A DNA stretch of 64,000 nt from Trichodelitschia bisporula. Taxonomy: Eukaryota. Made by a program: the position numbers and the translations under genes. The notes beneath the pieces were generated by a model. That model made no database searches and was not told the origin of the DNA. It saw only the letters and a list, made by a program, of their open reading frames with translations. Shown in pieces: positions 11,447 through 55,508 of the stretch (positions are counted from its first letter, which is position 1; the number at the start of each line of letters is the position of its first letter). Location of the stretch: assembly GCA_010356995.1 (NCBI GenBank), contig ML996696.1, positions 684,364-748,363 of the forward strand, in the 5' to 3' direction.

Positions 11447-14400
11447 CTATCGTTCGTATCCCCGCAACACTCTGATAACAGAGGTTTCCCTGTCCCCTGG
11501 GGTTAAATACCGCATCACCTCCTTGCACGCCTCCGTTGCTGCTGACCGGATGTTCTCCACAGGTAGTGCCTCAACATCAACTCTCGATAACCAACCTGTC
11601 GTGGCCTCCCATCCGCAAGTTTTGGCAAGTTCCTTCGACCTAGGGAGCTCTTCAGCTGCAACCTTTGTCGCGAAATCTGCCGCGGCTTCTACCGCCCCTT
11701 TAAGCTCCGCCCGTAAAGGTTGGTCTATACTCCAGGTGGGACTGAGGCCTCGTGCGGTTTTCATAACTGCATGCCTAATGCTCTCAAGTGCCCGCCTGGA
11801 CTTCCCAAATACGCTCTCCATGGCCGTGAGTATTTTCGAGGCGCTCGCTGGAGAGGTCGGATGGTCGTCTTTCTTCCTCGTGATTGCAAAATCATCTTCC
11901 ATTTGCATCGCTTCTTCTATTTCACGCATCGCGACGACCACTCTTTTAATAGCCGGAAAAATCGTTGCGAATATATGATCCACCTTGGCGATTAAGTCGT
12001 CCTCAGGAAGGGAGTTGTCCGCAACATAGTGACTATGCTCACTAGAGGCCATGGGATAAATGGATAAGGCTTCCTGAAAACGGAGGTTGTTGCCGTGATT
12101 AGATATAAGCAACAGGACTTTTACAGCCAGAACTGCCTCGTTGCTGGCCTCAAGGGTTTTGGCGACCCGGAGAAGCCTCACCATGGCGCAAGCAAACAAC
12201 GATTTGTCGATAATGGTCTTCTGTCCGCTGACCTTCGCGAGTATGACGCTCCAAGAGGCAACATTCGGATCCCACACTTCCTTTTCCCCAGCAGCGTTCC
12301 AGGTCCACGCCTCCACTTCTTTTTCCCACTGCTCCCATAATTCTTTCTCAAAGGGAGTCAAGTCGACTCGTTCGAGGTTGAAGGGTGTTGTATGCGGAAG
12401 CAAGCGGACTGAAGGGTGAACCTCAATGGGGCAGCTCAGCATCCCCGGTGATGATTTTCCGCGTTGCACATGTCGCTGAAGGAGCCTCCGACGCCGTCCA
12501 CTGGACCACCCGAACGTCAAACCATGCAGTAAGAGCCATCCTTTCGTAAGTGATTCATTAATTTCGCCTAGAAAAGTGAGAAAACAGCCGATGCGTGACT
12601 TTCAGTGAGCCGTACCTTTGGACAATATCAGGTTCTTGGGTGGCTCTTCCGTAACTGGGAACGGAGACCACCGCCTTTTCATAATTTGAGGAGGCTGAAC
12701 CATTTCAAGAAGCACGCGGTCATCAATTTCTGCTCCGCAAGCCATCTTGATCTGCGCCACCATCCAAAACAGAGAGAGTGTGGAAAGTCCAGCGTCCACA
12801 TTTCCACCCCCAACGTCTCCATGGCACCCGGAAAAGGCAACTTGCTTGACAGTGACACCGTCCTTGGCCTCTTCCCAAAGCAACGGCTTGAAGCTGAACC
12901 TCTTCTCGTGCAGAGAGACTGCCACGAAGGCATTTTTGACGGCGGTGGGTACCGTCCCCGCCATGAAGGACAATTTTCCTCTCAATGGCGATAGGCGGAT
13001 TGCACTGACGGGGTCCCATTCAGCCAGTACGGTGATTGTGACGGGCAAGGAAAATGCTTCAATCCCGCCTATGTGGTCTCGCATCTCACCTCGCTGTTTG
13101 TCTGTTCTCGCTTCCAACCATTTTTTGAACAAGCTGGGAAGGAAGTGCAAATTCTTGCGCCGAAGAAGTCCAATCTGACTGATAAGATCCGCGAGACATC
13201 GAACAGTAAAGGCACCCCGAGAATACCCGACAAGAACGATCTCGTCAGGGTCTCCTGAACGATGATCTTGATCAACACGATGATCGTAATTGTTGCAAAG
13301 GAAGCAGTACGCGCTGAGGATATTCTCATCCAGGCCTATCAGTCTCGTTAGTCTCAACATTTGATCTCCCGAGGACAAGACTGACCCTCTCCAGTAGCGG
13401 CAGAATAGTACTTATCCACTGGAAGCGCAAGGACGGATTGGGATCCCACCCCACCGGAATAATAGATCACCTGGGGTATGTCGAGTTCACTATTCCGGGT
13501 TTTCGGCAGGACAGCGCGTGCAAATCTCGCAACATTTGTGAGGGGAGAAGATTGGCGCGACGCATTCACGCTGGTACCATCACAGCAAATAAATAGACGC
13601 CTCTTGCTCGGCGCTGCGAATGGCTCCGGTTCAGTCTGATCCTGATTCTTTGCCTGACGCGGATTCGGCACCTGGAATGCTGTTCTCATTTCCTGGGTCT
13701 TTAATCGAGGCGGGCTCGGCGACCTGCGCCGGGTGGTTTTTATTGGGCTCCTCGACCGAGACCAACTTCGCCACCTGCCTCGCGAGGTCTTTAGTTTGCT
13801 TCTAAACCGAGATGAAGGCGGCGACTTGTGACGTATGATTGTCAATGGCCTTCCTGACGGAGGGGGGCTTGGAAATCTGCGACGGATGATCGCTTCTAGG
13901 CTTTTTGACCGAGGCGGAGTCCGCGATCTGGATCTTCTTCGGCTCCGTGACCGAGGCTGAGTCGGCATCGTGAGTCGTGTGGTCCTTATTGGGCTTCTTG
14001 GCCGAGGGGAACTCGAATCCCTGTGACGTACGACCGTTATTCGGCTGATTGTCTGAGACGGACTCGGGAATCTGCGCCGTGTGGAGGGTATTGTTCGCAT
14101 CTGCGATGGCTGACTTCGGCCCCGGGAGGGTGCAAAATGTGCACGTTGGCTTCCGTTCTTGCCCAGTGAGGCGTTTTCCACATTTCTGGTATCTGGGTAT
14201 TCATCCTGTCTCCTCGGTATCCACCGCCTCGAATGTGGCCAGGGAAAGTTTGGAAACGACATGGGTTTGTACGATTCGGATACCAACTGTTCTTCATCCT
14301 CAGATTGTAGATTCAGCTGCATCTCCTGTAACGAATCTAGTCCCCTGGAGTGTGGAACAGTATAAAAAGTGGACGAGTCAGACCCCAAACTCTCTTCGTC

Positions 14401-14661
14401 GTTGCCCGGGGAAGTGGGTTTAATGTTGCTCGAGTCTCCAGATTCATACTTTCTCTTTGATATGGGTTGTGCGGTATCCTCAGCTGATGATTTATGCGCT
14501 ATCTGTGATAACAGAGGGTGTTCATGGGAAGGCAAGATCATCGAAGACTCGCGCGGTGGACGCCCTTCGCTGTCTTCGTCCTCATCCGCATCGGCCATTT
14601 CCACTCTGCGGGGCCGAGGCTCCTCGCGTTCTTTGCTCTCACCCGGCTCGATACTTTCCAT
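11447..14661 (-). CDS. DUF2235 (Tle1 phospholipase-like alpha/beta hydrolase) protein with an Arg/Ser/Pro-rich N-terminal region and a helical C-terminal domain
   Basis: Motifs RRLFICCDGT, TNVARF, YYSGGVG, GYSRGAFTVR, SLHEKRFSF and FSGCHGDVGGG. Introns at 13336-13385 and ~12568-12615 join the three ORFs in frame. Confidence 0.85.
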
Positions 14662-15661
14662 GTTGTTCGTCTTCAAATTCCGGATGGCGTACTAGTTAGG
14701 AACAGGGTAAGAGAAAGTGAAGCTCCGATTCTCCAATCAAGCTGAGATTGCGCGGCAGTAATGGACACCGACGCGGGGTGTATGGGAGGAGAGTCAGATT
14801 CATAACTGCTTGAGGCTCTCTCTGCAGCCATGCGGCTGACCCGGAGTTTCCTACAGGCCGAAGGTTCTTCAACCATATTGAAGAGCTGAATATGCAATGC
14901 ACGCTCTCAAGCGGGGTCATGTCGCCAACCGACTTGCGAGTTGAAGTGTGGCTTACAGCAGCGAACGGCCGGCCTTGCGCGTTCCACAGTATGCGGGCGA
15001 AGAGGGCGGCAGAAGCCTGGCGCTAATGCAGTCCAAGAGGGCGGGAGTGGCCTTGATGAGGAGCATTTTCCGCGTCTGCCGATGGAATTGACAGGGGAAT
15101 GCAGCGCATATTTGCATATCCTATCACAGTGCGTCGGGACGTCCAGAAGGGTGTCCCGACATAACCGATGAGGCTCCGCACAGATATTGTTCATTCCTGA
15201 TCTCGACCGAGCTCTGACACTGATCAGCAAAAGGCGAGGAGAAGTAGGGTCGGCGTTTCTTTTACTCGGTACTGAATTGCGCGCTTCTGGGATTCATATT
15301 GTGGGTTGCAGCCTGGACAGAACGAGTTTGTGGAGAAATCAGGTGGCGATCGCGGATGAGCAGAGTTAAGATGTTAAGAAAGTAAGAGAGGTGAGGTTCG
15401 TGGATGATGCATGGAATGGTCTGATATCTCCTCAGGGGAAGTCGCCCTCTGATAAGGCGGTGAAGCCTTCCTTCCTAAAGCAAAGGCGGGAGGCGCGCCC
15501 ACACCCCGGCAATTTCTAAAGCCTCGATTGGCCAACGCGTTCGACATCGCGGAGCTCTGCCTGCTTTGTGCAACTCCTCTCCATCTGCACATCTACACAA
15601 CACCTTCATCACCCTCCAGCTATCCTCCACCTCCCCTCTCTCTATCTCTATTTTGCCCATC

Positions 15662-34267: not shown

Positions 34268-34379
34268 CACGAGACGACGAGGCGACGAGGCCACAAGGCC
34301 ACAAGGCCACAAGGCGACGAGACCACGAGGCCACGACGCATTAAGGCATTAAGGCAATAAGGTACTAAGGCATTAACAG
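34268..34379. repeat. 8-bp-period tandem repeat (~14 units)
   Basis: cacgagac gacgaggc gacgaggc cacaaggc x3 gacgagac cacgaggc cacgacgc attaaggc attaaggc aataaggt actaaggc attaacag. Confidence 0.85.
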
Positions 34380-34978
34380 GCTGGGGCAGCAAGGCAGCGA
34401 GGCGGTGAGGCATCACGCTTTTCCGGCAATCCGGTTGCACAGCCATACCGCCTCGACTTTCCCATCCCACCAGCCACACCGTCTCGACTCTCCCACTCCG
34501 CGAGCCGCACCCGTCACGACCTTCCCACATCACCTGCCCACCACCGCCGTCTCGACCTCCCCCCGGCCTCGCGTCGACAAGCACTGACATCCCCGCCTTC
34601 TCTCCGACGGCGAGTTGCTGCCCTTCTCAACACCATATCTGAGTGTGTATAGGTATCACTCCACTGACTTTACAGCTTCACCCTCCCCCTTCATCCCCCG
34701 CTCCATCCGTTGCCTCAATTGCACCAAGTACGGGTTGCCAGTCTCCCGCACCCACACTCGCACCCACACCCGCACTATCACCACTTTGTCTCACCCACCA
34801 TGCCAACCGCTGCAAGCCACTCGCCTCGCGCTGCCCTCCGGCGCAGGGCAGACAGCATGGACGCCTATTTCTGTCCTTGAACTCCTCCCCCTCTTTGTTT
34901 CCTTCTGCTGTATCTTCTTCACTTCCCTCCATCCCTCCATCCCTCTCCACCACATCTCCTTACTTACCTCAATCCCCT

Positions 34979-35263
34979 NNNNNNNNNNNNNNNNNNNNNN
35001 NNNNNNNNNNNNNNNNNNNNNNNNNNNNNNNNNNNNNNNNNNNNNNNNNNNNNNNNNNNNNNNNNNNNNNNNNNNNNNNNNNNNNNNNNNNNNNNNNNNN
35101 NNNNNNNNNNNNNNNNNNNNNNNNNNNNNNNNNNNNNNNNNNNNNNNNNNNNNNNNNNNNNNNNNNNNNNNNNNNNNNNNNNNNNNNNNNNNNNNNNNNN
35201 NNNNNNNNNNNNNNNNNNNNNNNNNNNNNNNNNNNNNNNNNNNNNNNNNNNNNNNNNNNNNNN
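34979..35263. other. Assembly gap (N run)
   Basis: About 285 consecutive N. Confidence 1.
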
Positions 35264-36043
35264 CTCCTCATCTCGCAATCCCAGCCCGACCACTGCCACG
35301 AGCCCACCCTGCGCACCCTCTCCCCCTCCACGCCCCTCGCCCTCTGCGCTCCCGCCGCCGCCGCCGCTTTGAAGAGCTGGTCTATCCTCCCGGGCCGCGT
35401 CGAGGCCCTGCAGCAGTACGACCCGGCCACGCCGTCGTCCCTGCGCCGCATACCCGTCCCGGCGCTCGGGTGTGCGCATGGTGAGATCACCGTTGCGTTG
35501 ATGCTCCCGCCATGGGGCAGCTTGGACGTCAATGGCTTGCACACGGCGCTGGGGATCACGTACACCTCCCCCACCGCACCCGGCATCCAACCCGAACACA
35601 TCTCGATCCTGTACTCCCCGCACGGACTCCCCGCAGCCTCTATCGAGCCGTGGGCCAAACACGTCCTGCGGGGCGAGCGCGTCACGGTGTTATTTCACAG
35701 TTTGTCCGTTGTGGATACGCCGTGGTGGATGGGCGGGAATGTGGCGCGGGGGGTGGAGGGGGGATTGGAGGTGGCTAGGGTGGTTAGACCTAGGGTGTGG
35801 GTTGCGGCGCACGAGGGGAGGAAGCATGCGGGGGGGTTGATGGCGAGGGTGGGGGGGGTGGTGAGGAGGGGGGTTGAGGTGCAGGATGTGCGCGTGGAAG
35901 GGGTTAGGGTTTTGGGGTTGGGAGGGGGTGAGAGCGTGGTTGTTGATGCGGAGGGGGGCGTTGAGGGGGGGGAGAGGGGGTTTGGGCGCGGGGAGGAGAG
36001 GGGAGAAGGGGAGAAGGAGGCGGTGGAGAAGGGGCGTGAGTAG
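35264..36043 (+). CDS. Metallo-beta-lactamase-fold protein (fungal conserved); 5' part lost in the gap
   Basis: ISQSQPDHCHEPTL (MBL-like xxxxDH), GLHTALGITY, ILYSPHG, WWMGGNVARG and WVAAHE. Confidence 0.7.
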   Translation, partial: LLISQSQPDHCHEPTLRTLSPSTPLALCAPAAAAALKSWSILPGRVEALQQYDPATPSSLRRIPVPALGCAHGEITVALMLPPWGSLDVNGLHTALGITYTSPTAPGIQPEHISILYSPHGLPAASIEPWAKHVLRGERVTVLFHSLSVVDTPWWMGGNVARGVEGGLEVARVVRPRVWVAAHEGRKHAGGLMARVGGVVRRGVEVQDVRVEGVRVLGLGGGESVVVDAEGGVEGGERGFGRGEERGEGEKEAVEKGRE

Positions 36044-36522
36044 GGTGGTGAGGAATGGGTGGTAGTGACTTGATGGGTGGAAGCACACATGGACGGTGCT
36101 TGGCGGTTTCGATGGCTTAGTGAGTTCCATTCTACCAGCATCTTCTTCTTAGAGCGTAGAACAATGCAAGCACATCTACCCCAATACTCCGCTCGAGGCA
36201 GTACACTTCCACCGCGTGGTCTCCATGCAACGCGACTGCACCCAGCGCCCATCCTCGTCACACCCTGATCTGGCAGCGCCCGGGCGATATCGTCGCTTCA
36301 GGGCAGCGCAGCCTTATAACCGGGTAGCCACGTGTGTCTCGGCCCAATGACGTCTACCGGCCCTGCCATCCAAACCGCATCACGACCACCTCACCTGCAT
36401 CTCAACGCCTTCTCCCAGCATATCCAGGCAGCCCCCTTCCCCCACCAGGCGGGGCAAGCTCAGCACCGAGCATCGAAGGCACCCACTGCGAGAGCGCAAT
36501 CAATAATCCAGCCCAGCTGGCC

Positions 36523-36553
36523 GGCGGACGGGTATAAATCCCGCCCGTCCGCC
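36523..36553 (+). promoter_or_regulatory. TATAAA box within a perfect 10-bp inverted repeat, immediately upstream of the arrays
   Basis: GGCGGACGGG-TATAAATCCCG-CCCGTCCGCC, followed by a CT-rich tract. The promoter role is inferred. Confidence 0.5.
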
Positions 36554-36585
36554 CACCGATTCAAACTCTCCATCAGCACCAGCAC

Positions 36586-37615
36586 CGCCTCTTCTCTCGC
36601 CTTCCCATCTCATTTACTCTTTGCACGAGGCATCATCTCTGTTGCTCTCTTTCTGGCTCAAGTAGCTCCCAATCCATCGTTTCTTCTTCGGTTCGTCTCC
36701 ACGATTCAGCGCGAGGCATCTTCTCCGCTGTGCTGCTTCTGGGACCAGCTAAAATCAACGCAATTGCCTCTTCTTCGGCTCGTCTCTGCGATTCAGCGCG
36801 AGGCATCGTCTCCGCTGCTGATCCTGGGGGGGGAGTCGAAGAGGAAGTATTGTCCCTCCTTCGCCTCATCCCCACTCTTCCTCGCGAGGCTGAGTACTCG
36901 CGGCGCGCATCCTGGGGCCGCAGCATCCCGCATTATTGCCTCTTTCTTCGGCTCGTCTCCACGATTCAGCGCGAGACTGAGTTCTCGCTGTGTGCATCCT
37001 GGGGCCAGTGCAAGAAGAGGTATTGTCCCTCCTTCGGCTCATCTCCACGATTCAGCGCGAGGCTGAGTCCTCGCTGCGGACTTCCTGCCTGTCGAATGCA
37101 GCAAGGAATTATCTCTTCTTCGGCTCATCTCGACGATTCAGCGCGAGGCTGACTCTCCGCTGCAGACTTCCTTGCTGGCGAACAGGAGGACAAATTGTCT
37201 CTCTCGCCTCATCCCCACTCTTCCTCACGAAGCATCGTCTCCTTCCCGCTCATCTTGGATGATGACGATGATGGTATATTGTTTCTTCTTCGGCTCACTC
37301 CACTCTTTCGCACGAGGTATCGTCTCCGCTGTGCTGCTCCTGTGGCCGCAGCATCCCGCATTATTGTCTCTTTCTTCGGCTCGTCTCCACGATTCAGCGC
37401 GAGGCCGAGGCCCCGCTGCGGACTTCCTGGTCCTCAATCAAAATGATCCATGGTCTCTCCTTGGGCTCATCTCCACTCTTTCGCACGAGGCATCGCCTCA
37501 CGTTCATCCTGGTTTTGAAATCCACCTCGATATCGTCCCTCCTTCGCCTCCAGAACCCCTCCTTTCCCCACGGGCCCAGCACCATCCCTCCCATCCAGGA
37601 CCACCGTACTCCACA
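36586..37615 (+). repeat. Array 1: ~12 units of ~86 bp, with a conserved ~55-nt core and a variable ~25-30-nt spacer
   Basis: Unit starts at 36676, 36763, 36849, 36935, 37022, 37108, 37194, 37278, 37363, 37450 and 37532. Consensus ATTGTCTCTTCTTCGGCTCRTCTCCACGATTCAGCGCGAGGC....TCTCCGCTG. Confidence 0.92.
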
Positions 37616-37696
37616 TCGATTCCAGCACCCAACACCCTCCCCCACCCGCCCCCGTCCGGTCGGGGTGGTATCCGGGGGAGTCCGACACGCTTCTCG

Positions 37697-40075
37697 ATCT
37701 CCGCCCCTGCGTCCCGCCCCTCGGCACTCCCACCCGGGGCTGGCCAGACTACCAAACTCTCAAAACGTGTCTCCGCCGTCGGCGCCTCACGTCCGGTGCG
37801 GGCCCGTAACGTTATCCGGGGCCTCCTTCTCAGCCTCTGATCTCCGCCCCGGCGTCTCGTCCTCGACAACCCACCTCGACTACCCAACTCGTTCGGGGGC
37901 CGGCCAGGCTGTCTACCGAGACCGTTCATGCTCTGCCGTCGGTGCCGCACTCCCGTCGCCATCATCCATCGCCATTCCAGCTCTTCGCTCCCGTCCGGTC
38001 GGGACGGCATCCGGGAAACCTACAACCCCGCAAGATCTCCGCCCTGGTATCCTGCCCTCGGCACTCCCACCGGGGGCTGGCCAGGCCACGAAACTCGCCA
38101 AGTCATGTCTCCGCCGTCGGCGTCGCGCGCCCGTCGCCATCATCCATCGCTATTTAGCTCTTCGCACCCGTTCCGTCCGGGCCGGCAGTTGGGACCTCTA
38201 CTCTACCCCCATATTCCCACCCCCTGGTATCCTGCCCTCGGCACTCCCACCCGGGGCTGGCCAGACGGCCAAAGGTATAAAGCGATTTCTCCACTGTCGG
38301 CGCCGCGCGCCCGTTAGTATCTATCGCCATCCGCCAGGTCTTCCGCCTCACGCCCGGTGCTGGCCGGAAGCCGGGCGCCTATCCGGCCACAATATTCCCG
38401 CGCCTGGTGTTCCGTCCTTCGCTACCTCTACTTGCTCGGGGCTGGCCGGGCGCTCATCCATCTCTCTGCATGCTCCTACCGTTGGTCCCGCGGGTACCTC
38501 GCCATCATCAATCGCTACGAGCCAGGCTTTCCGCCTACGGTCGGGTCCGGGCCGGTGAATCGGGCGCCTAGAGAGGCAGCGCTATCTCCGCGTCCCGACG
38601 TCCCGCCCTTCGCTACCCGCACTCTTCTGGGGCCTGGTTGGGCGTGGCAAGATGAAATATGGTCCTGCCGTCGGCGCCCCGCCCCGCTACTGTCATCTAT
38701 CGCTATGAACTACGCCTTCTGCCTACCATCGGTTCCGGGCCGGTACGCCGGGCAGGCAGAAATGCAAATCCATCTCCGCGCCCGGCGTCCCGTCCTCGCT
38801 ACCTCTACTCCATTAGGGCTGGCCGGGCATGTACGCCAGAACTACTATTGTCCTGCCGTCGGCGCCGCGCCCCGCCACCATCGTCTATCGCTATCTGCCC
38901 GGTATTAGGCGAGCGCGACTGGCACGGCCGGAAACTCATCAACATGCTCCAGCTTCCAGATCATGAACTGAAATCCAATCACCGGGTCAGGGCCGGTAAA
39001 TCGGGCCCTCAAGCGCATCAAGCGATCTCCGTGCCCGGCGTCTCGTCCTCACTGCCCCTACTCAGTCAGGGCCGGCCGTGCACGGGAAGTAGTGGCTTCA
39101 TTCTCCTACTGTCGGCGCTGCGCGGACACGCCGTCGTGAGCTATCGCCATACGCCAGGCCTTCCGCCTCGCGTTTTAGCCGGGCCGGCAGCCGGGACGCA
39201 TTTCGGCACGTCGTATCTCTACCCCCGGCAGGTCATGCCAACCTCTCATGCGCTCGCTCGGGCTGGCCGGGCAGTATGAGCTGACCAAATACACTCGGTG
39301 CTGGCTCGGTTCATGACGACCTCCGCATACGCCCTTGCCGCCGGCGCTGCTTATACCTACCGCCATCGTCCATCGCCATCTACCAGTTCTTCCGCCTCAC
39401 GTCCGGTCTAAGCCGGCAGCTAGGACGCCCTCCTCCCTTCGTATCTCTGTCCCCGGCAGGGCATGCCAACCGCTCATTCGCTCCCTCGGGCTGGCCGGGC
39501 AGTACGAACTGACCAAACATGATCGGGGCTGGCCTGGGCCTACACTATATTCATCTACAGTCCCGGCGCTGGCGCCGCTTCCACCCGTCGCCATCGTCCA
39601 TCGCCATTCCAGCTCCTCGCCCCCCATCCGGCCGGGCCAGTACGTCGGGCTTTCCAACCACCCATAATATCTCCGCGCCCGGCGTCCCGTCCTCGCTACC
39701 CCTATTTGGTCAGGGCGGGCCGGGCGAATGACGGAGAAACTCTATTGTCCTGTCGTCGGCGCCACGCGCACCTGTCGTCGTGAGCTATCGCCATGCGCTA
39801 GGTCTTCCGCCCTACATTCGGGCCGGGCCGGCAGCCCGGACGCAGCACGCCACCTCGTATCTCTACGCCCGACACGGCATCCCGGCCCATCATTCGCTCG
39901 CTCGGGGCCTGTGGGCATGAAAAGCTGGATACGCATGCTCGGTGCTGGTCCAGGCCTAGAGCACCTTCGTCAATGGTCCCGCCGCTGGCGCCGCTTGCAC
40001 CCGTCGCTATCGTCCGTCGCCATCCGCCATATCTTCCGCTCCGTCGGGCAAAAGTATCCCGGCAAGAATGTGCCC
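37697..40075 (+). repeat. Array 2: ~12 dimeric (A+B) stem-loop units, modal period ~190 bp, with variable linkers
   Basis: B units (ATCTCCGCGCCCGGC...GGGCTGGCCGGGC) start at 37697, 37840, 38035, 38213, 38394, 38584, 38772, 39025, 39215, 39443, 39669 and 39859. They alternate with A units (ATTGTCCTGCCGTCGGCGCC...CATCGYYAT...GGGCCGGCAGCCGGGA). Confidence 0.9.
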
Positions 40076-43000
40076 CGCCGGTCAGCGCCGCGCACCAGTG
40101 CCCGGGCGCGCTTCGGTGACCCCGGTGCTGGGATCGGCTGGCTGCGCAGATAAACAATGCGGCGTGGCCAGGTTAACAATATGACGACCATAATGCTTCC
40201 GTCCTCGGCGCTCCTCCACTTTATCCCATGCGCTCTGCCTGCGCTGGTGCCGCGCAACGGCGGCGGGGCGTGTTGGCATAGCTTCGTATGCTGAGGTTGG
40301 CAGGGCGTGGGGATGTACGATGCAGCTGGTCCGGGGCGTGAGGAGTGCGAGTGATGCCTCCGGCTGCTCGGCGGCCAGGCTCTCCTACTCCTCCAGCCAT
40401 GCTGCGGTTGGCGTGTCCTGCGCGGGATATGCGGCTGGGCCGGCGGTCAGGAGCAGAAGTGTTGCAATATATGCGGCTGTCGTTTGCTCGTCTTTCGTGG
40501 TCCGACGGATACGGCACACGCTACGGTCGACGTGCCCTCGTCACGCCTAGCATCGACTCTGCTGGGATGCGCAAAGAGGGAGATGATGTTGCCGTCGTTT
40601 TCTCGTCTTCCGGAGTCGACACCGGACGCGCTACGCGTTGCTATCCTTGTGTCTTCGGCATATGCGGATGGCGGCTAGGCCGGGGCCGTGAAAGGTCTAT
40701 TTTATGCTGCTGCCGGCGTGCCCTCGTCACGCCGAATACGGCTCGGTCGGGTCCAGAATCAGAAGACCAATGCTAGGCCTTTCGAGCCCGTTCGCGACCC
40801 GGAGGGTCTCGGGTAAATATGCCCGTTCCTCCCTTGCAATGCGCTGACCCCCTAGATGTACTGGATTCCGCGGCTTTGACGAGGTCGGAACAGCGTCGCA
40901 TGTCCCGCTGGGTCTCAACCTACTTCCGGGACAGAGCCTCGGTCCCCTTCGCGCGACACGTATGCTCCCGTTGTCTGCTCGTCTTCCGAAGCGTATACCG
41001 ACGGACCTCTCACCACGGCTGCTGCTACAGGTGTTCTATTCATCGCTGTTTCTCCATCGACATCACCAACTTTCATGGTTATGCTTTGGTACCCAACAAT
41101 GCGAAGCTATGCTCCTGTCCGGTCCTCTCTCGCTTCTGGTTAAGCCCGACTCGGTCCGGTAGGCCCCCTCCCACCATTCCCCGCTCCTTAGTCTAGGTCA
41201 GGCTGATACTGGGTAAAGCATCCCGGCTGGTCTCACTACCTATCCATTCCCGGCTCCTAAGCCTAGGTCAGGTTGATATAGGGTGAGGCATTCCGGCATT
41301 TAACCCGTCTTCCATATGTGCGCTGGCCGGTGTCTGGATCCTCTCCCCCACCTCATATTGCGCCTCTGTCTCTGGGATCTGGCGGAAGGTGCTCAGTGCC
41401 ACATTTATGTGCGACGGCCCTAGGTGTGCCACAGCCCGAGTCCGGCTGGTGCAATGGGCCGCCTTGTCATCCATCAGAACCTGGTGCTCGGCATCCCATC
41501 GCGGCTCCCATGATCGCGCCCCCGTTTCCGAAAGCATTGTCAATCAAGAGCATACGGCCCACCCGCGCCGCGTCCCGCGTGGTGCTGAGGAGGTCAAGCT
41601 CTTCAACGATGGCCGGCCTGTCCATTTAGCCCGACAGCAAGTCTCCAACCGGTGTCTCGGCCCGTGCATCGGCCCGTGCATCGCGATCGCCTCGCTCACG
41701 GGAGACTTTCCAGGGCTTCGCCATCCAATTCGATGCGGCTCGCCCGCGTGGCGTCCCGCGAGCGGCCACGCATCCTATCGCTGCATGCCGCTCTGCGCGG
41801 CTCGGTCCAGCACCATCACTTAGTTCATCTTATCTCTCAACCCCCTATGGCCCGGGCCGTCCCTAGGCCGGACAACATCTGCCCGAATTGCCGTTCCGGT
41901 CTCGCTGGGTCATTTTATCTCAATGCTTGCGCCGGTCTCCGGGCCGCCTTCAACAACCTCGATTCGGCTACGGCTGTCGAGTCCCGAAGTCGGGCCCGGC
42001 GAGGAGCCTGTTCTCGCCATTGTTCCCATGGCCGGTTAGCTCGTCTAGCCGCACCTCCCATGCTTGGTTCGTGCCCGGGGGCCCGGGCGGCGAGAATGTC
42101 CAGCACTTGCGGGCCCGGTGTGACCCTCCTGTCACATACCGGCAGCCGTCCTACCCGGCGTGTTCCGCTTTCAGCCTCGTTGGCCGAGCCTGGATCCGGA
42201 ATTTAGGGCAACTCGTCGGCTCGTGCCTAAGCCCGGCGGCTGAACACGAAGGACGATTGCGGGCTCGGTCTCTGCGCAAGCATTCGAATTTGGGGTTACG
42301 GCCCCTTCTGCCAGGTCAAGACGACAGCATATTTCGGTGGCCTATCTTCCTCTCGTAGCCGCGGCACCAGTCCCCTCACTCCCACCGATCAGACAGATCT
42401 TCCAAGACCTCATCGATGCACCCCCACACCACCGCCATCAAAACCCTCAACACCCTCACTATCAGCATTTGCGTATGCGTTTGCACAGACGCTGTCAAAA
42501 GAGACCCAACCAGACAAGTCAAGTATCCCATGACCTCTGGCGCACACCGTATCAACAGCTGGATATGATTTCGGCCCTGTCTCCTGTGTGCTGGCCGGCC
42601 CACTGGATGTTTCGTAATCCACGCCCAGAATCAGTTCCCTGCGCCGTTTTCCATCGGCATATTCATCTCCACGACATGTCCGTGGCGCCTTTGGACTACA
42701 TGGCTTCATCGCCGGCGGTTCCTGGGCCAAAGTCCAAATGAACAATGTGCCGGTGTCTGGCCCCAAACTCAAATGGCGAACGTGACGGTGTCTGGCATTC
42801 GACTCTGCGAGTCCATCTGCCGGCGTCCGTCGTCCGATACAGATGGCGACTGTGCCAGATCCGCCTTTGCAGCCGAGTCCAACGCCCACCCGCGGCGCCC
42901 ACGGCTGCTATATCAAGTCTAAGGGCTACTTGGCCCGTCCCGCTCCGCTAAGGTCACTCATAGCACCAGTCCGGAAACTCGGGCTCAACATTCATCTCTA

Positions 43001-44629
43001 CTGTGCGTAAGGGTCGCCCACTTGTTCTAGGACTCAGCGTCGGGAGACGGGGCCCAAAAATCAGCGGCCTATGTCGGTGAGCTTGGCTGCTCGCTGTCTA
43101 GTCGGGCATAGTCTTCTACTACTGTATTCGTGCCTTGTCGGCTGCACGGCTTCATCGCCCGGCTCGAGTGTGGATCACCGAAGGTCTATCATCGGGCTCC
43201 CTCGCTGCCCCGCGGTTCTGGGTACTGTGACAAATTATTCATTGTCCCGCGGCGGCTGCGTGGCTTCGTCACGCGGCTCGGGCCGAGACGCACTAAATGG
43301 ATTTATGCCCCGCTCGCTGCTCCGCAGTCACCGGCATAACCAAGTCAAGATGCATCTTCTACCCCCCCGCTGTCCCGCAGTCCCGGACCTTGACTAGCCG
43401 ATATGTACCTTTTGGCCCCCTCGCTGCCTTGCAGTCCTCGGGCGGCCTTCCAAACGTCTCTTGCCTCGTGGCGGCTGCGGCGTCTTGGGCCGCCTATCCA
43501 GCAGCAATTTACCGTGGGACCCGCCGCGAGCTCTCGGTCCGAAGATCTCGGTCGGATCAACTGAACTGTATTCGTGCAGTACGATTCTACTTGAGCTCGG
43601 CCTCGCTTTCACTCGTTCGGCCGTTCAGGTCGGGCCAAGTACAACGACCCTCGATCGTGGTGCTCCGGTGGAAGCTGGAGCCACCCAGGCCTGGCCGGGT
43701 TTGTAAACCTTCTATCTCATTCAGCTCTCCTTCTTTATTAGCCATGCGGGGTGATCCGGACCAGTGACCAGTCTGTCCAGACCTAACGAACTAAGGATCG
43801 GCCCAAGCTTCACCCAGCACGGTGCAGGCGGATCATGTGCGGCTTGTGCCTCAACCCATTTCTGCCATGCCTTCGTCATGCCAAATGGCCTACTACGCTC
43901 CGGTCCCACTCGAACTTCATAATTGCCGGCCCCGAATTAAGACATCTGATTTTGGGCGTCCTTCAGACCATGAAATGGCCGGGTCTGAACCTTTAACGCA
44001 TCATTGCCGGTGTTGCCCCACCTTCTGAACTTTACTACCAGACGTCCTCCCGTCGTCACATCACCGCCAGCTGGAGTTGTGATTTCTCAAAACAGGACCT
44101 ACGTGCTCGCACGCTGCCTGCGTCTCGCAGTTCGACAAAGGTTAACAGATGTATCTGCTGAGCCAGGATTACCTCATTTCCATCAGATGGTCTGGTCGGC
44201 TCCACCTCAGGCCCTGTGCCTAACTGTCCTATGATTTGGCGGGTTTGCGGCCGACCTCACTCAACCCGTATGGGATCGCTTCGTTTCCGATTCGTCCTAA
44301 TGGCATCGTTCTCCGGTTCAGCATTAACGAGCCGAGTAAATCTCACAGGACCATTACTTTTGCGCTGTGTCCAGCGGGCCCCGGGCGACCACTTATCGCA
44401 TGAACTGTTCGGCTCGGCGCGCGGTCGACATCGACGACGATGTATCGTGCCAGGCAACTTTTGCCATCCTGTCATGTCCGCGGCCGGCCGCGCCCGGAAG
44501 TCTCGAGTGCCATTTTGCCCAATTATGGATCGCCATGACTGCCCTGTGTGCGAGATGAAGCGCTGTCTGGCGCCAGGAGGAATTCACCCATTGCTGTGGT
44601 CTTCTGGCGGGGGCTGGCTAGCAGCACCC

Positions 44630-46652
44630 ACTTCCAATGTACCTGCCGTTGGTACCGGCCGAAGTGACGCGCTCGGGTCATGCAGACACAGACACCGACA
44701 CATTTGTTCCTCCTCGGTCCGTCTGCGCTCGATAGCCACGTATGGGATCAAGGGTGAACAAGGAAACGAAGCATTGCTGTTGCGCGGTCTGGACTTGCAG
44801 CGCCGGTATGCCCGGCTTGAGCGCCAATGAGCTTGTACATCGCTGCTATGATCTTCCGGTCGGGACTGGCCGATGTCGACATGGACACATGTGCCCTCTT
44901 TCCTTCGGCTGCACGCGGTACCGGGCCCGGGGCCCGGCTCACCATGCCGCCACCCCATTTCCCCGCATTCCGTCGGCGCCCACAAAAGCGGGGCACTTGA
45001 GTCGGTCGTATCGCTGCTGTTATAGGTTTACTTCTCCTCGGTCCGCCTGTGCTCGATGACGGGCGGGTAATCCGGAGAACTTCCGAGCCAGCTGATTGCG
45101 GTTGCGCAGTCGGGGCTTATACCACCGGCAAAGCTTGTTCGGGCGCCCAACAGCGCCGAATATTCGCCGTCGGCCCGTCCACAGGAGACACAGGGCGCGG
45201 AGGCCGGATACCATGAACTTTGGTTCATTACCGTTGGGCAAACGAGCATTTCCTGGATGTCCGCCGTCTGGCCGGCTTGGGCGGGTATACTGGAGCAGCA
45301 GTAGGCAATCGAATGTGCTGTCTTCCCGGTTACGACGCACGGCACTGGGCCGGCAGATCGGCAAGCAGTCCCGTAAGCTTATTACCGGGCACCAGTACCA
45401 GGTCGACAACTGTTCACCGCAATGTGTCCCTCAGTCCGTTACGCTTTGACGGCGGGCGCGTAGTCCAGGACGAGAAGCTGGTGAAAAAATGCGGTTGTGT
45501 GGTCCGGGCTTGCGGCTGGCATACCCGGTAATTACAAAAGTTTTCCGATGCCCGTGCCGTCGGTTGGCCTGCTTAGCGGATGTGGATACAAAGAAATGTG
45601 CCCTCTTCCTTTCGGCTGCCTACAGTACTGGACCGGATCCCGGTATGCCGCCTCTCGCACTCATTGCCGCCTGCGTCGGGCTGGGCACGAGGTACCCCTC
45701 GCATGCGTTTCTCAGTCCATTGCACTCAACAGGGGGCGTAGTCCGGAGCCCCAAGGCGGACAAGCATTGCGGTTGCGCGGTCGGGGCTTTTAGCCGACGT
45801 GCCCGGCAAACCTTACAATGTTCGTATGTCCGTGCCGTCGGTCCGGTCGCGGCAAATGCGGGGTCTCTAACCGGGGCAACACCCCACACCCTTATTGCTG
45901 CCCGGCGCGGCTGGCCCTGATTAAGAAACTCGCCGCTCATTTTCGTCGGTTGGCCTTCTTGGGGGACATTAAAGCCCATCATACTGCCCTCCTCCTTCCG
46001 GCTGCGTACGATACTAGGCCGGTAGGCCGGCGGCCCGTCCTACACCCTAATTGCTGCCTGCGCCGGAGCGGGGCTTGCAGCCGACGTGCCCAGCACGCAT
46101 ACCCACCCCCTCATTCGGTCCGGCCGCGAGGGGGCAGGTGCCACTAGCCGAGACAACGCACAACCGCTCAAATTGCCTCCTCGGCTCGGCCGGCCCGGAT
46201 GAACAAGCGCATCAAAGATTTCCGTCACTTGGCTTTCCCGGGCAACAGCACATCCGCGAAACTGCCCTATTCCTTTCGGCTGCGTACGGTACTACCCCCG
46301 GAGTCCGGCGGCGAGTACTTCAAGTCCATTGCCGCGCGCGCCTAGGCTAGGCGCAAGACACTCACTCGCATGCGTCCCTCGGTTGCGTTGCGCCCGGTCG
46401 CGGGCCGAGTCCGGGCCTGGAATACAGCCACGAATTCGGCTGCGCGGCCGGGGCTTAGCACCGGCGTGCCCGGTTTACATACAAAGAGAACCATGTCCGT
46501 GCCGGCGGTCCGGCCGGGAGGTACTGGCACGTAGCCGGGGCCGAGAAAGCCGCAAAGGATTGCCGTCCGGCGTGGCGGGGCCGGGTCCGGAGTGCTCACC
46601 CTTCATGTCTGCCGTCGGCCTGCCTGTGGGGGATGCGGGGCGGTCGGGCTGA
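44630..46652 (+). repeat. Array 5: highly degenerate multi-part repeat related to the array 2 A unit
   Basis: Recurring ATGTCCGTGCCGTCGG(T/C)(T/C)GGCC (~44637, 45257, 45548, 45826, 46493, 46605) and CCCTCTTCCTTTCGGCTGC.TACGGTAC (~44894, 45600, 45987, 46266). Confidence 0.75.
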
Positions 46653-47815
46653 AAACGACGGAGAGTAATTGCTGCGCTGGCGGCGGTGTAGGTAGAGGTT
46701 GTGGACTGGTATGACGGGCGGAGGAGTCTTGGGACAAATGTGCGTTGCTTCGGGTTTGGTGGTGCTGTAGATCGTGCTGTGTTGAATAATAGCCGAGTCG
46801 AGATGTGAGCGGTTGCGTTCAGCCTTGTCCTTCGTGCCTTGTAGCCAGCAGACCCATCCGCTGCAGTATCAACTGTGAATTATCCCTTTTCAGTCTGCCA
46901 TCCGTGTACCCAGCGCAAGCCCGGTGGTTGCCCAATTGCGGCCCAAGCGAGCGCGCAGGAAGGAGTGGGCACGCGCCGTTCCAGGGCTAGGGCGATGACG
47001 ACAGCACCACCACCAGCCTTAACCCCCTCCACAATCACCCTCCATCGCACGCAAAACCACGCAAAACCATCAGCACAAGACCCTTAGCCCCCTCCACCGT
47101 GCGAACGGCCCCAGCCGTCGAAAATCTCTAGCCGAAACCGCGGACCCGCTGCGTCGGACCCCGTTCCCGACAGGCCGGGTAGGATCCGAGCACGGGCTTC
47201 GTGACGACGGGGCGGTCCGCGTGGGGCGGGGTGGGGGTAGGACACGCCCCGCTGGGATGTGGGACCGTTTTAAAGAGCGTGGGTGACTGGTGTGCTTGAT
47301 GGGGTGGCGAAGGGTTGATGTGGTTAATGAAGGCTTCGAGTGGCTGATGAAGTTGACGGTTCTGCAAGACAAGGGGATGCTGTAAGTGAAGAGGACCTGG
47401 CACGGACAAGTTTGAGGAGCGGAACAGCATGCCGAGCAAAGTGTTGGCTAGTAATACCCGTATAGCGAATGGACATCGATCGCGCAGTCCCCCCGTTCCG
47501 TATGCCTCGGGTTACTGTCCATCTATCTCACCCGTCGCCCGCCGCAGTCGCCGTGGACTTACAACCCCACCGGTTCCTTCAAGTCAGCTACCAAGTGAGA
47601 CACCAACCGTCCTCTATTCCTTTTTAAACCCCTCCGCCCCAACCCCGAACCGAGAAACAAGAGGGAATGAAAAATGCCTCGCCGCAAGAACGCAAACTCG
47701 CAGAAACAGAAAGGACAACCACCCGCCCAGAAATAGCAAAGAGATCTCGCCATCGTCATAAATTCATAAGATCGCGGCCCCCTTTTGTGCATCCGTCACC
47801 AGTGCACCCCCATGG

Positions 47816-49391
47816 TCACCGTGCTGACCCAATAGGAGGAATCCCAGACGTGTTAGCAGCGCGCTGTGCACGTTCACGCGCTTCCGCCTCGGTGGGCTTG
47901 CGACCCCATACCACGTATCTGGAACTTAGCTGGGCCGTCAAAATGCACGCAAGGCGACTCACATCCGATGATAGGCATGTACTCTCCGGTCCGAGAGAGC
48001 CTGGCGCACGCGTACAAGGTACACCTCAATCTCCTCCTTGGTCCATCCAAAAGCGGTGGAAAAATATCTAAGAGAGAAGGCCTGCAGTCCGTCCAGAAGA
48101 CTCTGCTCCCAAAACCGGCCGAGCAGCTTGTATTGCGGATCCTTGGGCCACGGGTTGATCGGCATCTTCATCACCTCCTCGTGCACGTCAACGAAGCCAG
48201 CCTGCTCGTACCATCTCTTCATCTTGTTGCCAGTGCGGATCGGTACCCTGCAAGACATGGCCGCTTCGTCCAGATTCCTCGACCATTCGAGGAAGGGGTG
48301 GTCTTCAGGCATCGTCCCGTCGTCGCAATACACCGTCGGGTAGAGTTCTTGGCTCTCCATCCACCCTCCCGGTTCCAGATAGCGGAATGAGCGGTTGATT
48401 AGCGCGCGGAAGTCCTTAAAGGAGCCTAACAATACACGCGTGTGGATGTAGTCGTATGTCTTTGAGCCCCAATCATCTTGTGAGTTGTCCTCAATTAAGA
48501 AGCGCACATTATCGAAGGGGCTGATAGGTCAGCAGTACTCAAACGAGAGGACGAGACGTACTTCTCCTCAAAACTCAAGGACAAATCCGTTCCGGTCAGC
48601 TGCACCTGTCAACACTGGTCCAGAGCGTGTGTGGAGACGAGTACCTGAGCATTTGGAAACTCTTCCGCTGGAACACGTTAGCTGCGGTTCGGGCATGTGA
48701 ATCGGTCAGTCGCACCCATTTCCAAGACCCAACGGCCAGTGCCAGTGCCGATATCCAAAATGCGACAGGGGCTTCCGATCGGCGCGAAGTAATTACGGTT
48801 GCCGAAGAGGTTCTTCAGCACGTAAAACTGCAAGTTGAGTCGCTCGTGCTCCATCTAGAAGCGTGAGAAGTCTTCCACCCGAGAATATGGCATGCATACT
48901 TCATCGTTCGGCAGATAGTACGCTTGACGCGTTTAGTACTGCAAATGCAAAAGGAGAGGTCACAAACTGCTGCCTTCGGAAAAACGGTGGTACGTCCGGC
49001 CATTTTCTCGGATGTACTCGTAAATGCTTTCCCTCACCGACCTTGTACTGCTGGCAGTGACCGGTTAGCGGGCACGGCGGCTGCGGGCAGCCGTGTGGGA
49101 CGAACGTACGACAGCACGCTGTTCTGGTCGTCAGACTGCGGGGGTTAGATGAGCTTTAATGGTGGCATGTGGCGAAGAAACGAAGACGAGTTCAGACAAA
49201 AGGAAACGATAGGAATTTTCACACCTGGTTTCAGATGAAAAGAGACGTCAAGGAGTGATGGGATAAACGAAATGTAGCAGTCTTACATCCGCTTCGATAA
49301 CGGCGCGTGGGCTGAGGGCATCATCAACGCTCGACTCAGGCGATTGAGTATTCAGAAAGGCCCCGGCTTGAGGCGTCTCTGGCGGTAACAT
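47816..49391 (-). CDS. LaeA-like SAM-dependent methyltransferase (Methyltransf_23/TAM type), multi-intron
   Basis: Spliced reading SIYEYIRENGRTYHRF..YYLPNDE|MEHERLNLQ..RILDIGTGTGRW...YDYIHTRVLLGS..LEPGGWMESQE..PINPWPKDP..HAY|..VVWGRKP. About seven introns. Confidence 0.92.
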
Positions 49392-54116: not shown

Positions 54117-55508
54117 ATGGCCGTCAAGCGTAAAGCCACCGACGTGGCCAGTGATGCGGCGAAGAAGACAAAGCAAAGCGGGTATGTGCGGTGTGATGTC
54201 AATGTACATCAGAACATTCCATCGATCGATCGCTGACAACCTGGTTAGCATAACATCCTTCTTCGGGAAATCGGCCAGTGGATCAGCTTCTACGAGTAAG
54301 GCATCCGGCACGACAGCCTCGCCCAAGTTCGACAAAGCGGTATGGGCAGCGAAGCTCACCGATGAGCAACGCAAGCTTCTCCAGCTCGAAATCGACACAC
54401 TGGACGAGACCTGGCTAGCACATCTGAAGGATGAAATCGTGACTCCCGAGTTCCTGAATCTCAAGCGCTTCATCGACAAGGAGATCGCCAGCGGCAAGCG
54501 CGTGTTTCCCCCTTTGCAGGATGTGTACTCCTGGTACGTTGCACCGATCGCGGTCCCTTACCTTATCTCTTCCTATCGGAGACTGACCCCCACAGGTCGC
54601 GCTACACACCCCTCCCAACCGTCAAGGCCGTCATCCTAGGCCAAGACCCCTACCACAACATCAACCAAGCCCACGGCCTGTGCTTCAGCGTCCGGCCTCC
54701 CACGCCCGCGCCCCCCTCGCTGAAGAACATCTACATCGCCCTCAAGAAGGACTACCCGACCTTCATCGCCCCGCTGAATAATGGCGGGCTCCTTACACCA
54801 TGGGCCGAGCGCGGCGTCCTCATGCTGAACACGTGCCTCACCGTCCGCGCCCACGAGGCCAACTCCCACTCAAACAAGGGCTGGGAACGCTTCACGCAGA
54901 AAGTCATCGACACGGTGGTTAAGAACCGCCGCAATGGCGTCGTGTTCCTGGCTTGGGGCAGCCCGGCGCAGAAGCGCTGCGCGACCGTTGGGTCGCCGCA
55001 TGTGGTGCTTAAGAGCGTGCATCCGAGTCCGTTGAGTGCGTCCCGGGGATGGGTATGTGTCCTGTCTTGTTGGACCCGAGATGAGAAGTGGGGCTAATAA
55101 GCGCAGTACGACTGCGGCCATTTCAAAAAGGCGAACGCCTGGCTGGCAGAGCGCTACGGGCCCGAGGGCCAGATCGACTGGAACTTGAACTCGACGCCCG
55201 GCGCCCCGCCGGCCAAGGACCTGCCGAAATTGGAAGACAAAGAGGCCGAATCGACCAAGCCGGAGGTTGAAGAATCGATGGCTCCGGAAGGCGAAGAGAC
55301 TGAATCCACAAAGAAGGAGAAGGCCGAACCCAAGACCGCTGAAGGCAAGGAAGCTGAATCCGCGAAGTCCGAGGCTGCTGAAGGCAAGGAACCCGAATCC
55401 GTAAAGGCCGAGACTGACGAAGGCAAGCAAGCTGAATCCGTGAAGGCCGAGGCCGCCGAGGGTAAGGAAGCCGAATCCACAAATTCCGAGCCACGATACA
55501 CCTCTTGA
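54117..55508 (+). CDS. UNG1: Uracil-DNA glycosylase (family 1) with an acidic repeat C-terminal tail
   Basis: PIP-like SITSFF, LEIDTLDETWLAHL, ILGQDPYH, AHGLCFSV, PPSLKNI, GVLMLNTCLTVRAHEANSH and HPSPLSA. Introns at 54182-54249, 54534-54595 and 55052-55106. Confidence 0.96.

Follow-up and report, generated by a model that had tools for sequence, protein, structure and literature searches.

A 10-kb region of the window, the stretch of 64,000 nt that was analysed, is transcribed, non-coding and made up of about 95-115 modules on the + strand that share one grammar: a constant part (scaffold) ending in YCNGGN, 18 variable nucleotides (cassette) and AT(T/G/C). What is conserved is the motif pair together with the 18-nt gap, i.e. 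primary motifs and a distance. This architecture is real, sharply constrained and apparently undescribed; a literature search, conducted largely on open-access titles and abstract openings, returned no description of such an array. The region looks like an undescribed kind of small-RNA guide library, which we put forward as a candidate function. The whole analysis covers one genome and one RNA sample.

Module grammar of the locus

The initial annotation had recognized an array of CRISPR-like units at 36586..37615. This array is real, but it makes up only the 5' tenth (~1/10) of the structure, which runs on the + strand from the TATA box at 36533 to ~46760:

36533..36538, + strand: TATA box (TATAAA), putative promoter, 46 nt before the first unit
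36584..37618, + strand: array 1, 12 modules of 82-92 nt
36658-36675, 36745-36762, 36831-36848, 36917-36934, 37004-37021, 37090-37107, + strand: 18-nt cassettes of array 1 units u1-u6
37176-37193, 37260-37277, 37345-37362, 37432-37449, 37514-37531, 37601-37618, + strand: 18-nt cassettes of array 1 units u7-u12
37619..40100, + strand: array 2, in which scaffold types of about 52-58, 89-97 and 17-25 nt alternate; motif-18 nt-AT module as in array 1; spacing peak 18/76 against a background of 2.6
40100..44400, + strand: middle block, diverged scaffolds, same module at lower density; spacing peaks 10/46 (background 1.7) and 11/30 (background 1.3)
44400..46760, + strand: distal block, the densest part (13-14 modules per kb), most scaffolds 23-68 nt, last cassette ending at 46737; spacing peak 17/55 against 1.9

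Recounting the unit starts of array 1 (36584, 36676, 36763, 36849, 36935, 37022, 37108, 37194, 37278, 37363, 37450 and 37532; next 37619) gave periods of 92, 87, 86, 86, 87, 86, 86, 84, 85, 87, 82 and 87 nt, an exact match to the periods annotated initially. Each unit does end in a variable tail, but this tail is 18 nt long, preceded by four half-conserved nucleotides, and not 25-30 nt as had been proposed; the cassettes of u1 and u2 may alternatively be read as 19 and 20 nt. Divergence is far from uniform along the unit. Pairwise identity among u1-u10 (45 pairs) was 0.70 in the scaffold (range in array 1: 0.52-0.85) and 0.31 in the 18-nt cassette, and in the six pairs with scaffold identities of at least 0.80 the cassettes were merely 0.11-0.44 alike. 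Only u3 and u8 carry identical cassettes. The suggestion that spacer length is constrained despite spacer divergence is supported, the gap being fixed at 18 nt. The ~86-nt unit is not supported as a functional size, as scaffolds run from 14 to 100 nt along the locus. The scaffolds of array 1 are mosaics of two alleles at two sub-blocks, a pattern that would be expected from gene conversion, and the array was single-copy in a genome-wide search, at the sensitivity of that search.

Alignment of arrays 1 and 2 on AT gave a fuller grammar: RGYC-N-GG-N, 18 variable nt, AT(T/G/C) and a pyrimidine-rich start of the next scaffold. A PSSM gave 84 hits inside the locus, compared with 10 for the minus strand, 23 across the remaining 53.6 kb and 1-14 in shuffles; matrix hits reached 4-14 per kb in the locus, and no kilobase of a 0.6-Mb genome sample had at least four. 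Since the model was trained on the region, the PSSM counts are partly circular, and a spacing test was used instead, in which the distance from each YCNGG to AT(T/G/C) is recorded without a trained model. Of the 215 YCNGG sites within 36560-46800, 62 were followed by AT(T/G/C) at a distance of 19 nt, compared with 3-13 sites (about 8) for any other distance between 5 and 39; the neighbouring distances d=18 and d=20 accounted for 12 and 7 sites, respectively. With AT not required, the two largest departures were A at position 0 (91/215) and T at +1 (101/215). The distribution was flat on the minus strand (159 sites) and in the 0.6-Mb genome sample (4903 sites), and the peak was absent from the rest of the window (10/303 and 2/136 sites).

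All five sub-blocks of the locus showed the peak (6/8, 18/76, 10/46, 11/30 and 17/55; backgrounds 0.3-2.6), and three of them had played no part in motif derivation. The motif was derived from 36.6-40.1 kb and held out of sample at 38 of 131 sites in 40.1-46.8 kb. A relaxed parse yielded 116 modules with scaffolds of 14-100 nt and cassettes that were 18 nt long in 90 of the 116, and a stricter score left 95 modules. The 18-nt spacing is common to scaffold families that do not align to one another. A metagenome scan with a 19-nt scaffold motif found eight loci, all of them isolated chance matches of 19-29 nt.

A hairpin had been taken initially as the conserved core of the unit. It exists (CAGCGCGAG, in 6 of 12 units), but it is limited to half of array 1 and is not supported as the conserved core; the compensatory A-U/G-C pair described for the units at 36967 and 37053 was found in our alignment. 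Only u2 (z -4.6) and u4 (z -2.8) folded better than shuffles, partly by pairing with their own cassettes, and the folding energy of the array 1 consensus was -2.55 kcal/mol. In a two-helix model of array 1, one helix of which closes at the cassette edge, 80% of cells were paired with three two-sided changes, equalled by 4 of 500 shuffles in a control that ignores relatedness. Across the locus, 75-77 scaffolds folded no better than shuffles on either strand (mean z -0.24 on + and -0.18 on -), and scaffold-specific pairing was absent from 77 scaffolds, whose own 3' end did no better than a swapped one (own wins 35/77). Within the RNA, pairing is lowest in the cassettes (0.43-0.6 vs about 0.65). 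GG was often predicted to be paired and position -22 showed six pair types, signals that are inseparable from composition. The 22-mers from -22 to -1 begin with U in 9 of 12 cases in array 1 and in 16 of 84 over the whole locus, where the base at -22 is A11 C30 G27 T16.

Transcription and genomic setting

The RNA evidence consists of two contig runs (X1 and X2) of one sample. RNA contigs cover 36309-47900, and unspliced contigs of 0.5-1.5 kb are present across the array. A contig of X1 begins at 36309, i.e. coverage starts upstream of the TATA box. A 10-bp GC-rich inverted repeat at 36523-36555 encloses the TATA box in its loop. Three GT-AG introns lie inside the covered region:

37020..37165, + strand: cryptic GT-AG intron of 146 nt with a CTGAC branch-like motif, inside array 1; in one X1 contig (depth 6.9), absent from X2
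40813..40855, + strand: GT-AG intron of 43 nt with a CTGAC branch motif; joint in X1 and X2
41159..41218, + strand: GT-AG intron of 60 nt; joint in X1 and X2

The + strand GT-AG joints indicate that the motif strand is transcribed and spliced in this one sample. We infer that the region is a single transcript from the TATA-box promoter, of which each contig spans a part, with ends and strand being unreadable from contigs. The 371-aa ORF at 37443-38558 was rejected as a protein gene, as its product matched no Pfam family, had sub-threshold Atlas matches only and gave a model with a pLDDT of 0.29. Other ATG frames in the locus reach about 200 aa at most, in A-poor sequence, and no protein was evident among them.

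A Pfam scan of the window revealed ARID, ELYS, Nop, cutinase, F-box, mitochondrial carrier and aconitase genes, i.e. eukaryotic gene content, and on sequence grounds the host is a filamentous ascomycete. The window lies on contig 10 of a 25.8-Mb assembly, and the array region is flanked by two genes:

35264..36043, + strand: 3' part of a metallo-beta-lactamase-fold gene, upstream neighbour, of an ordinary fungal family
47959..48507, - strand: methyltransferase gene (PF13489), convergent downstream neighbour

The top homologues of the upstream protein came from Venturia (35%) and lichen fungi. The 5' part of its gene is masked by an N run at 34979-35263; this run of 285 N has RNA contigs with loose ends on both sides. 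We do not claim a link between this gene and the array because the unusual motif of the gene is common to ordinary homologues. On the other side, a minus-strand intron joint was found in the convergent methyltransferase gene, and one contig runs from this gene into the array region, making the gene a possible source of antisense read-through. Viral contigs scanned with the methyltransferase returned nothing. An Rfam scan of the window gave 0 families at gathering score and two chance matches (E 0.37 and 0.88). Elsewhere in the window, short imperfect tandem repeats (periods 8 and 31) cluster at 34268-34560 in the promoter region of two divergent genes; a fungal gene with a Tle1-like (DUF2235-type) phospholipase domain extends over two ORFs on the minus strand at 12602-14676, probably split by an intron; and an in-frame 39-nt tandem repeat of ~4 copies at 55330-55490 encodes an Ala/Glu/Lys-rich peptide.

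Cassette sequence and target searches

Cassettes contain 28.8% A and scaffolds 13.8%. An A at -13 occurs in 39 of 83 cassettes, and in 27 of 64 module sites compared with 25 of 151 control sites (p = 1×10-4). In the 32 pairs of paralogous modules whose flanks are most alike, cassette identity is 34%, against 27% over all 4464 pairs; one cassette pair is identical and a few pairs are alike at 12-13 of 18 positions. The cassettes at 39007-39024 and 46200-46217, which belong to unrelated scaffolds, have a common 12-mer shifted by one base, as if for the same target site (47 of 2000 shuffled sets). Three transitions separate the paralogous cassettes at 39275-39292 and 39501-39518, two of them at third positions of one sense frame. 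In a weakly scored cassette, 39480-39492 shares 13 nt with 34799-34811 in the 5' region of the upstream beta-lactamase-fold gene.

The cassettes resemble sense coding sequence, each in its own phase, a likeness that we rate as moderately supported. With common boundaries, codon scores were raised in one frame pair (sense z 3.7-3.9, antisense z 4.1-4.4, a slight antisense lean), and in a simulation on codon scores the antisense model was the best fit. Stops are depleted, 6 of 83 cassettes having one in the favoured frame where 14 were expected, and three-base periodicity by permuting positions had p = 0.07. A mixture fit with a fourth-order model put a weight of 0.85 on sense coding. The sense minus antisense score of the cassettes was +18 to +25, and composition-matched controls gave +19.7±9.5 for sense CDS, -24.3±9.7 for antisense and +0.8±9.7 for non-coding sequence. 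The sense minus noncoding score was +25 to +27 at the control setting (non-coding control: -7.5±9) and dropped to +13 with more shuffles, a setting applied to the cassettes and not to the controls. The moderate rating reflects the antisense-leaning codon scores, the periodicity value and the dependence of the noncoding score on settings. Neighbouring cassettes have no shared frame (0.356 for 59 pairs; null 0.344, true micro-exons 0.48), and the junctions between them are not coding-like.

The locus also contains a gene fragment:

42542..42645, + strand: decayed sense copy of C2H2 zinc-finger coding sequence, 78% over 106 nt; source gene on another contig (L069:1501-1606)

This copy overlaps two weak modules and indicates that gene fragments do enter the locus. 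The source gene itself carries CCGGC, 18 nt and ATC at the matching place. The possibility that cassettes are mimics of C2H2 zinc-finger codons gained no support (11.4 vs 11.6±0.4, with only three fingers in the sample).

Target searches were largely negative. When four cassettes were compared with the whole genome, three matched themselves alone and no convincing target was obtained. The fourth had 10 other matches within two mismatches, compared with two for the control, and its two best matches were rejected as targets, being Leu-Lys-Arg repeats in sense frames without the upstream motif. When 83-84 cassettes were compared with 0.65 Mb and 0.87 Mb (the latter being 3.4% of the genome), close 22-23 nt matches were not over-represented, whatever the orientation. 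If there were one perfect target per cassette, ~3 would be expected in 3.4% of the genome, so that perfect own-genome targets are unlikely for most cassettes. Loose 18-nt sense-type matches numbered 1145 against 962 in a reversed control, a surplus that the coding likeness of the cassettes predicts. The best wobble-aware match overall, that of u7 (penalty 1.5), lay in sense orientation within the acidic, low-complexity part of a HECT ligase and was discarded as a chance match. In phage and plasmid sequences, array 1 spacers had matches at chance level (best E 0.3 and 0.9, respectively). Genome DNA searches are too insensitive for 18-mers and were left out of the target evidence.

Candidate functions and relation to known systems

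At a probability of about 40%, our preferred reading is that the locus serves as template for antisense small RNAs that have a 5' U and are taken up by Argonaute. About 100 different short sequences would be stored as a small-RNA library in a long non-coding unit transcribed by Pol II. One of the three RdRPs, or read-through from the convergent gene, would produce an antisense copy. Cutting or termination of this copy would place its 5' U opposite the invariant A, and from there it would extend across the cassette and into the GC-rich motif; the predicted products are 19-24 nt long and carry a 5' U. In a 24-nt Dicer duplex over the module, the guide 5' end would be closed by a weak A-U pair and the other end by G-C pairs. 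Such a weak 5'-end pairing asymmetry favours loading of that strand. Argonaute with these guides would act on mRNAs resembling cassettes, either loosely paired own genes or foreign ones (competitor, virus, transposon). Mosaic conversion would homogenize the scaffolds while each cassette is kept distinct; A-poor scaffolds may give few competing 5'-U reads, and the G-to-A and T-to-C shifts of the cassettes may produce U- and G-rich guides tolerant of wobble.

The reasoning behind the antisense template is that an exact gap points towards a distance measured along a helix; in a fungal RNA, such a helix would suggest that a double-stranded intermediate and the RNAi machinery are involved. If the cassettes are sense mimics, the guide would be the antisense copy, and the invariant A would supply its 5' U. 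Argonaute (three loci), RdRP (three), Dicer-like (two) and further RNase III genes (two) are present in the genome, which favours this reading; that its RNAi genes form an ordinary fungal set speaks against it. Dicer and RdRP are, to our knowledge, not known to need such motifs, which also speaks against this reading, and A at -13 has no place in it. Fungal Dicer products favour 5' U, according to PMC4425646 and 10.1101/501650. As to the strand of the guide, codon-only scores lean to the antisense frame and the higher-order model leans to sense. We consider it rather doubtful that the locus is a CRISPR-like memory, in which ~100 gene-derived 18-nt spacers, changed independently of scaffolds, would give small RNAs against mRNAs of other organisms or of viruses through RNAi or an unknown effector.

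The + strand itself might give the guides, as a milRNA-like polycistron from which a nuclease that recognizes the motifs releases either the 22-mer from -22 to -1 or a scaffold-plus-cassette RNA, comparable to a crRNA and its 5' handle. The U start of most array 1 22-mers, the short stem closing at the cassette edge there, the A at -13 (nucleotide 10 of the 22-mer) and the antisense lean of the codon-only tests would fit. As any base is found at -22 locus-wide, the cassettes are least paired and have no star strand, the higher-order model indicates sense, and no antisense target was found for 84 cassettes in 0.87 Mb, we hold guides from this strand to be doubtful. Another possibility is that the long RNA remains uncut and serves as decoy or scaffold. 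The motif pair would then be bound by a protein or complex requiring a fixed gap, with the cassettes as unstructured linkers or decoy sites for other small RNAs. Such a role requires no targets and is consistent with A/C-rich, little-paired cassettes and with the unspliced contigs; however, a flexible linker should allow ±1 nt, contrary to the sharp peak, and plain linkers should not resemble sense coding sequence, which makes this possibility unlikely. Exact spacing would suit a rigid DNA helix, CCNGG is palindromic and RNA structure is unsupported across the locus (with no gain of own over swapped ends), all of which would favour a DNA-level array in which proteins bind bipartite sites with a spacer of two helical turns, similar to a pairing centre, insulator or barrier, and transcription is incidental. 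Against this speak a TATA box directly before the first module, introns on the motif strand, a strongly strand-asymmetric composition, and abrupt borders between near-identical scaffolds and unrelated, coding-like cassettes; we consider DNA-level function quite unlikely.

The arrays clearly grew by tandem duplication, and the identical cassette pair and the few similar ones would also be seen in an old neutral minisatellite region whose spacing is merely inherited. Such a region should not combine cassettes near substitution saturation, with almost no length change, and scaffolds that vary sevenfold, nor keep one spacing in non-alignable scaffold families, and its divergence and indels should be evenly spread along the unit; a neutral origin is thus very unlikely. 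As 18 is a multiple of three, with a sense coding signal, few stops and some paralogous cassettes differing at third positions, one might think of 18-nt micro-exons that together encode a protein, the AU...GGN scaffolds being bypassed by the ribosome or spliced out without the spliceosome. We give this hardly any credence: neighbours share no phase and their junctions are not coding-like, strong modules carry favoured-frame stops, the scaffolds (beginning with AT, ending with GGN, some 14-17 nt long) have no splice consensus, and no RNA joint removes a single scaffold, in a contig set that could miss a fully spliced product. Readings as a retroviral primer-binding site, Helitron end, Ire1 site or start-codon pairing do not fit the motif table when set against their consensus sequences.

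For each of CRISPR arrays, milRNA hairpins, snoRNA arrays, micro-exon genes and neutral minisatellites, the locus lacks features that define the class. CRISPR arrays have one promoter and constant units with unrelated spacers of fixed length, the most homogeneous units being promoter-proximal. The locus likewise has one (putative) promoter, constant units, unrelated fixed-length spacers that are unique except for one identical pair, and its most homogeneous units next to the promoter. In contrast to near-identical direct repeats, its constant parts are heterogeneous (14-100 nt) and share two short motifs only; the host is eukaryotic, and the 18-nt spacers match phages and plasmids at chance level. 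The initial annotation had refrained from calling the array CRISPR, and rightly so: the host is eukaryotic, and no cas-like or defence genes were found in 26 window ORFs (Pfam) or 9 (PADLOC), barring a weak methyltransferase match, and the TnpB-like family PF07282 is absent from the whole genome.

Pol II precursors of piRNA clusters and plant TAS/PHAS loci are long and non-coding and give rise to many guides, with an RdRP step in TAS and phasing from one cut in TAS/PHAS. The proposed long spliced Pol II precursor, its many guides, the captured gene fragment and the RdRP step resemble them, whereas here each guide position would be delimited by its own motif pair and fragments are sense; we know of no PIWI pathway in fungi. 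The locus would work like a piRNA cluster or TAS precursor with a CRISPR-like layout. Size class and 5' U would also fit fungal milRNAs, ex-siRNAs or disiRNAs, for which Dicer, Argonaute and RdRP are present, and in the case of disiRNAs the convergent gene could supply antisense RNA. In the available parts of the fungal RNAi review PMC7763443 and of PMC4425646, fungal milRNAs are placed in one arm of a 43-89 nt hairpin, whereas the cassettes lie outside the stem, have no star strand and pair with their own scaffold in u2 and u4 only. Nothing of the form of an array of ~100 modules is described in those parts of the two papers, nor in the part available of a review on non-canonical splicing (PMC13149111).

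Several other systems combine kept motifs with free sequence. Tandem box C/D snoRNA and TIGR-type guide arrays have kept boxes and drifting guide segments, like the motifs and cassettes here, but our locus has no C/D boxes and no Rfam match, with one 18-nt segment per unit. In the Ruby motif of C. elegans 21U-RNAs and in V(D)J recombination signal sequences, two short motifs likewise stand at a fixed distance around a spacer of free sequence, which there is inert DNA. By contrast, the spacer described here looks coding-like and resists homogenization, and the sites are all confined to a single transcribed region.

If the cassettes are guides, the locus would represent a new encoding of many small RNAs, in sequence-delimited slots instead of hairpin arms or phasing. 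The processing rule (motif, 18 nt, AU) could then allow a single fungal transcript to deliver many guides, and the question of spacer acquisition in a eukaryote would arise. The grammar is invisible to repeat finders over most of the locus, so that comparable loci elsewhere among fungi may go unnoticed. Under the rival readings, too, an exact 18-nt gap in ~100 otherwise unrelated modules over 10 kb implies a ruler-type protein or complex.
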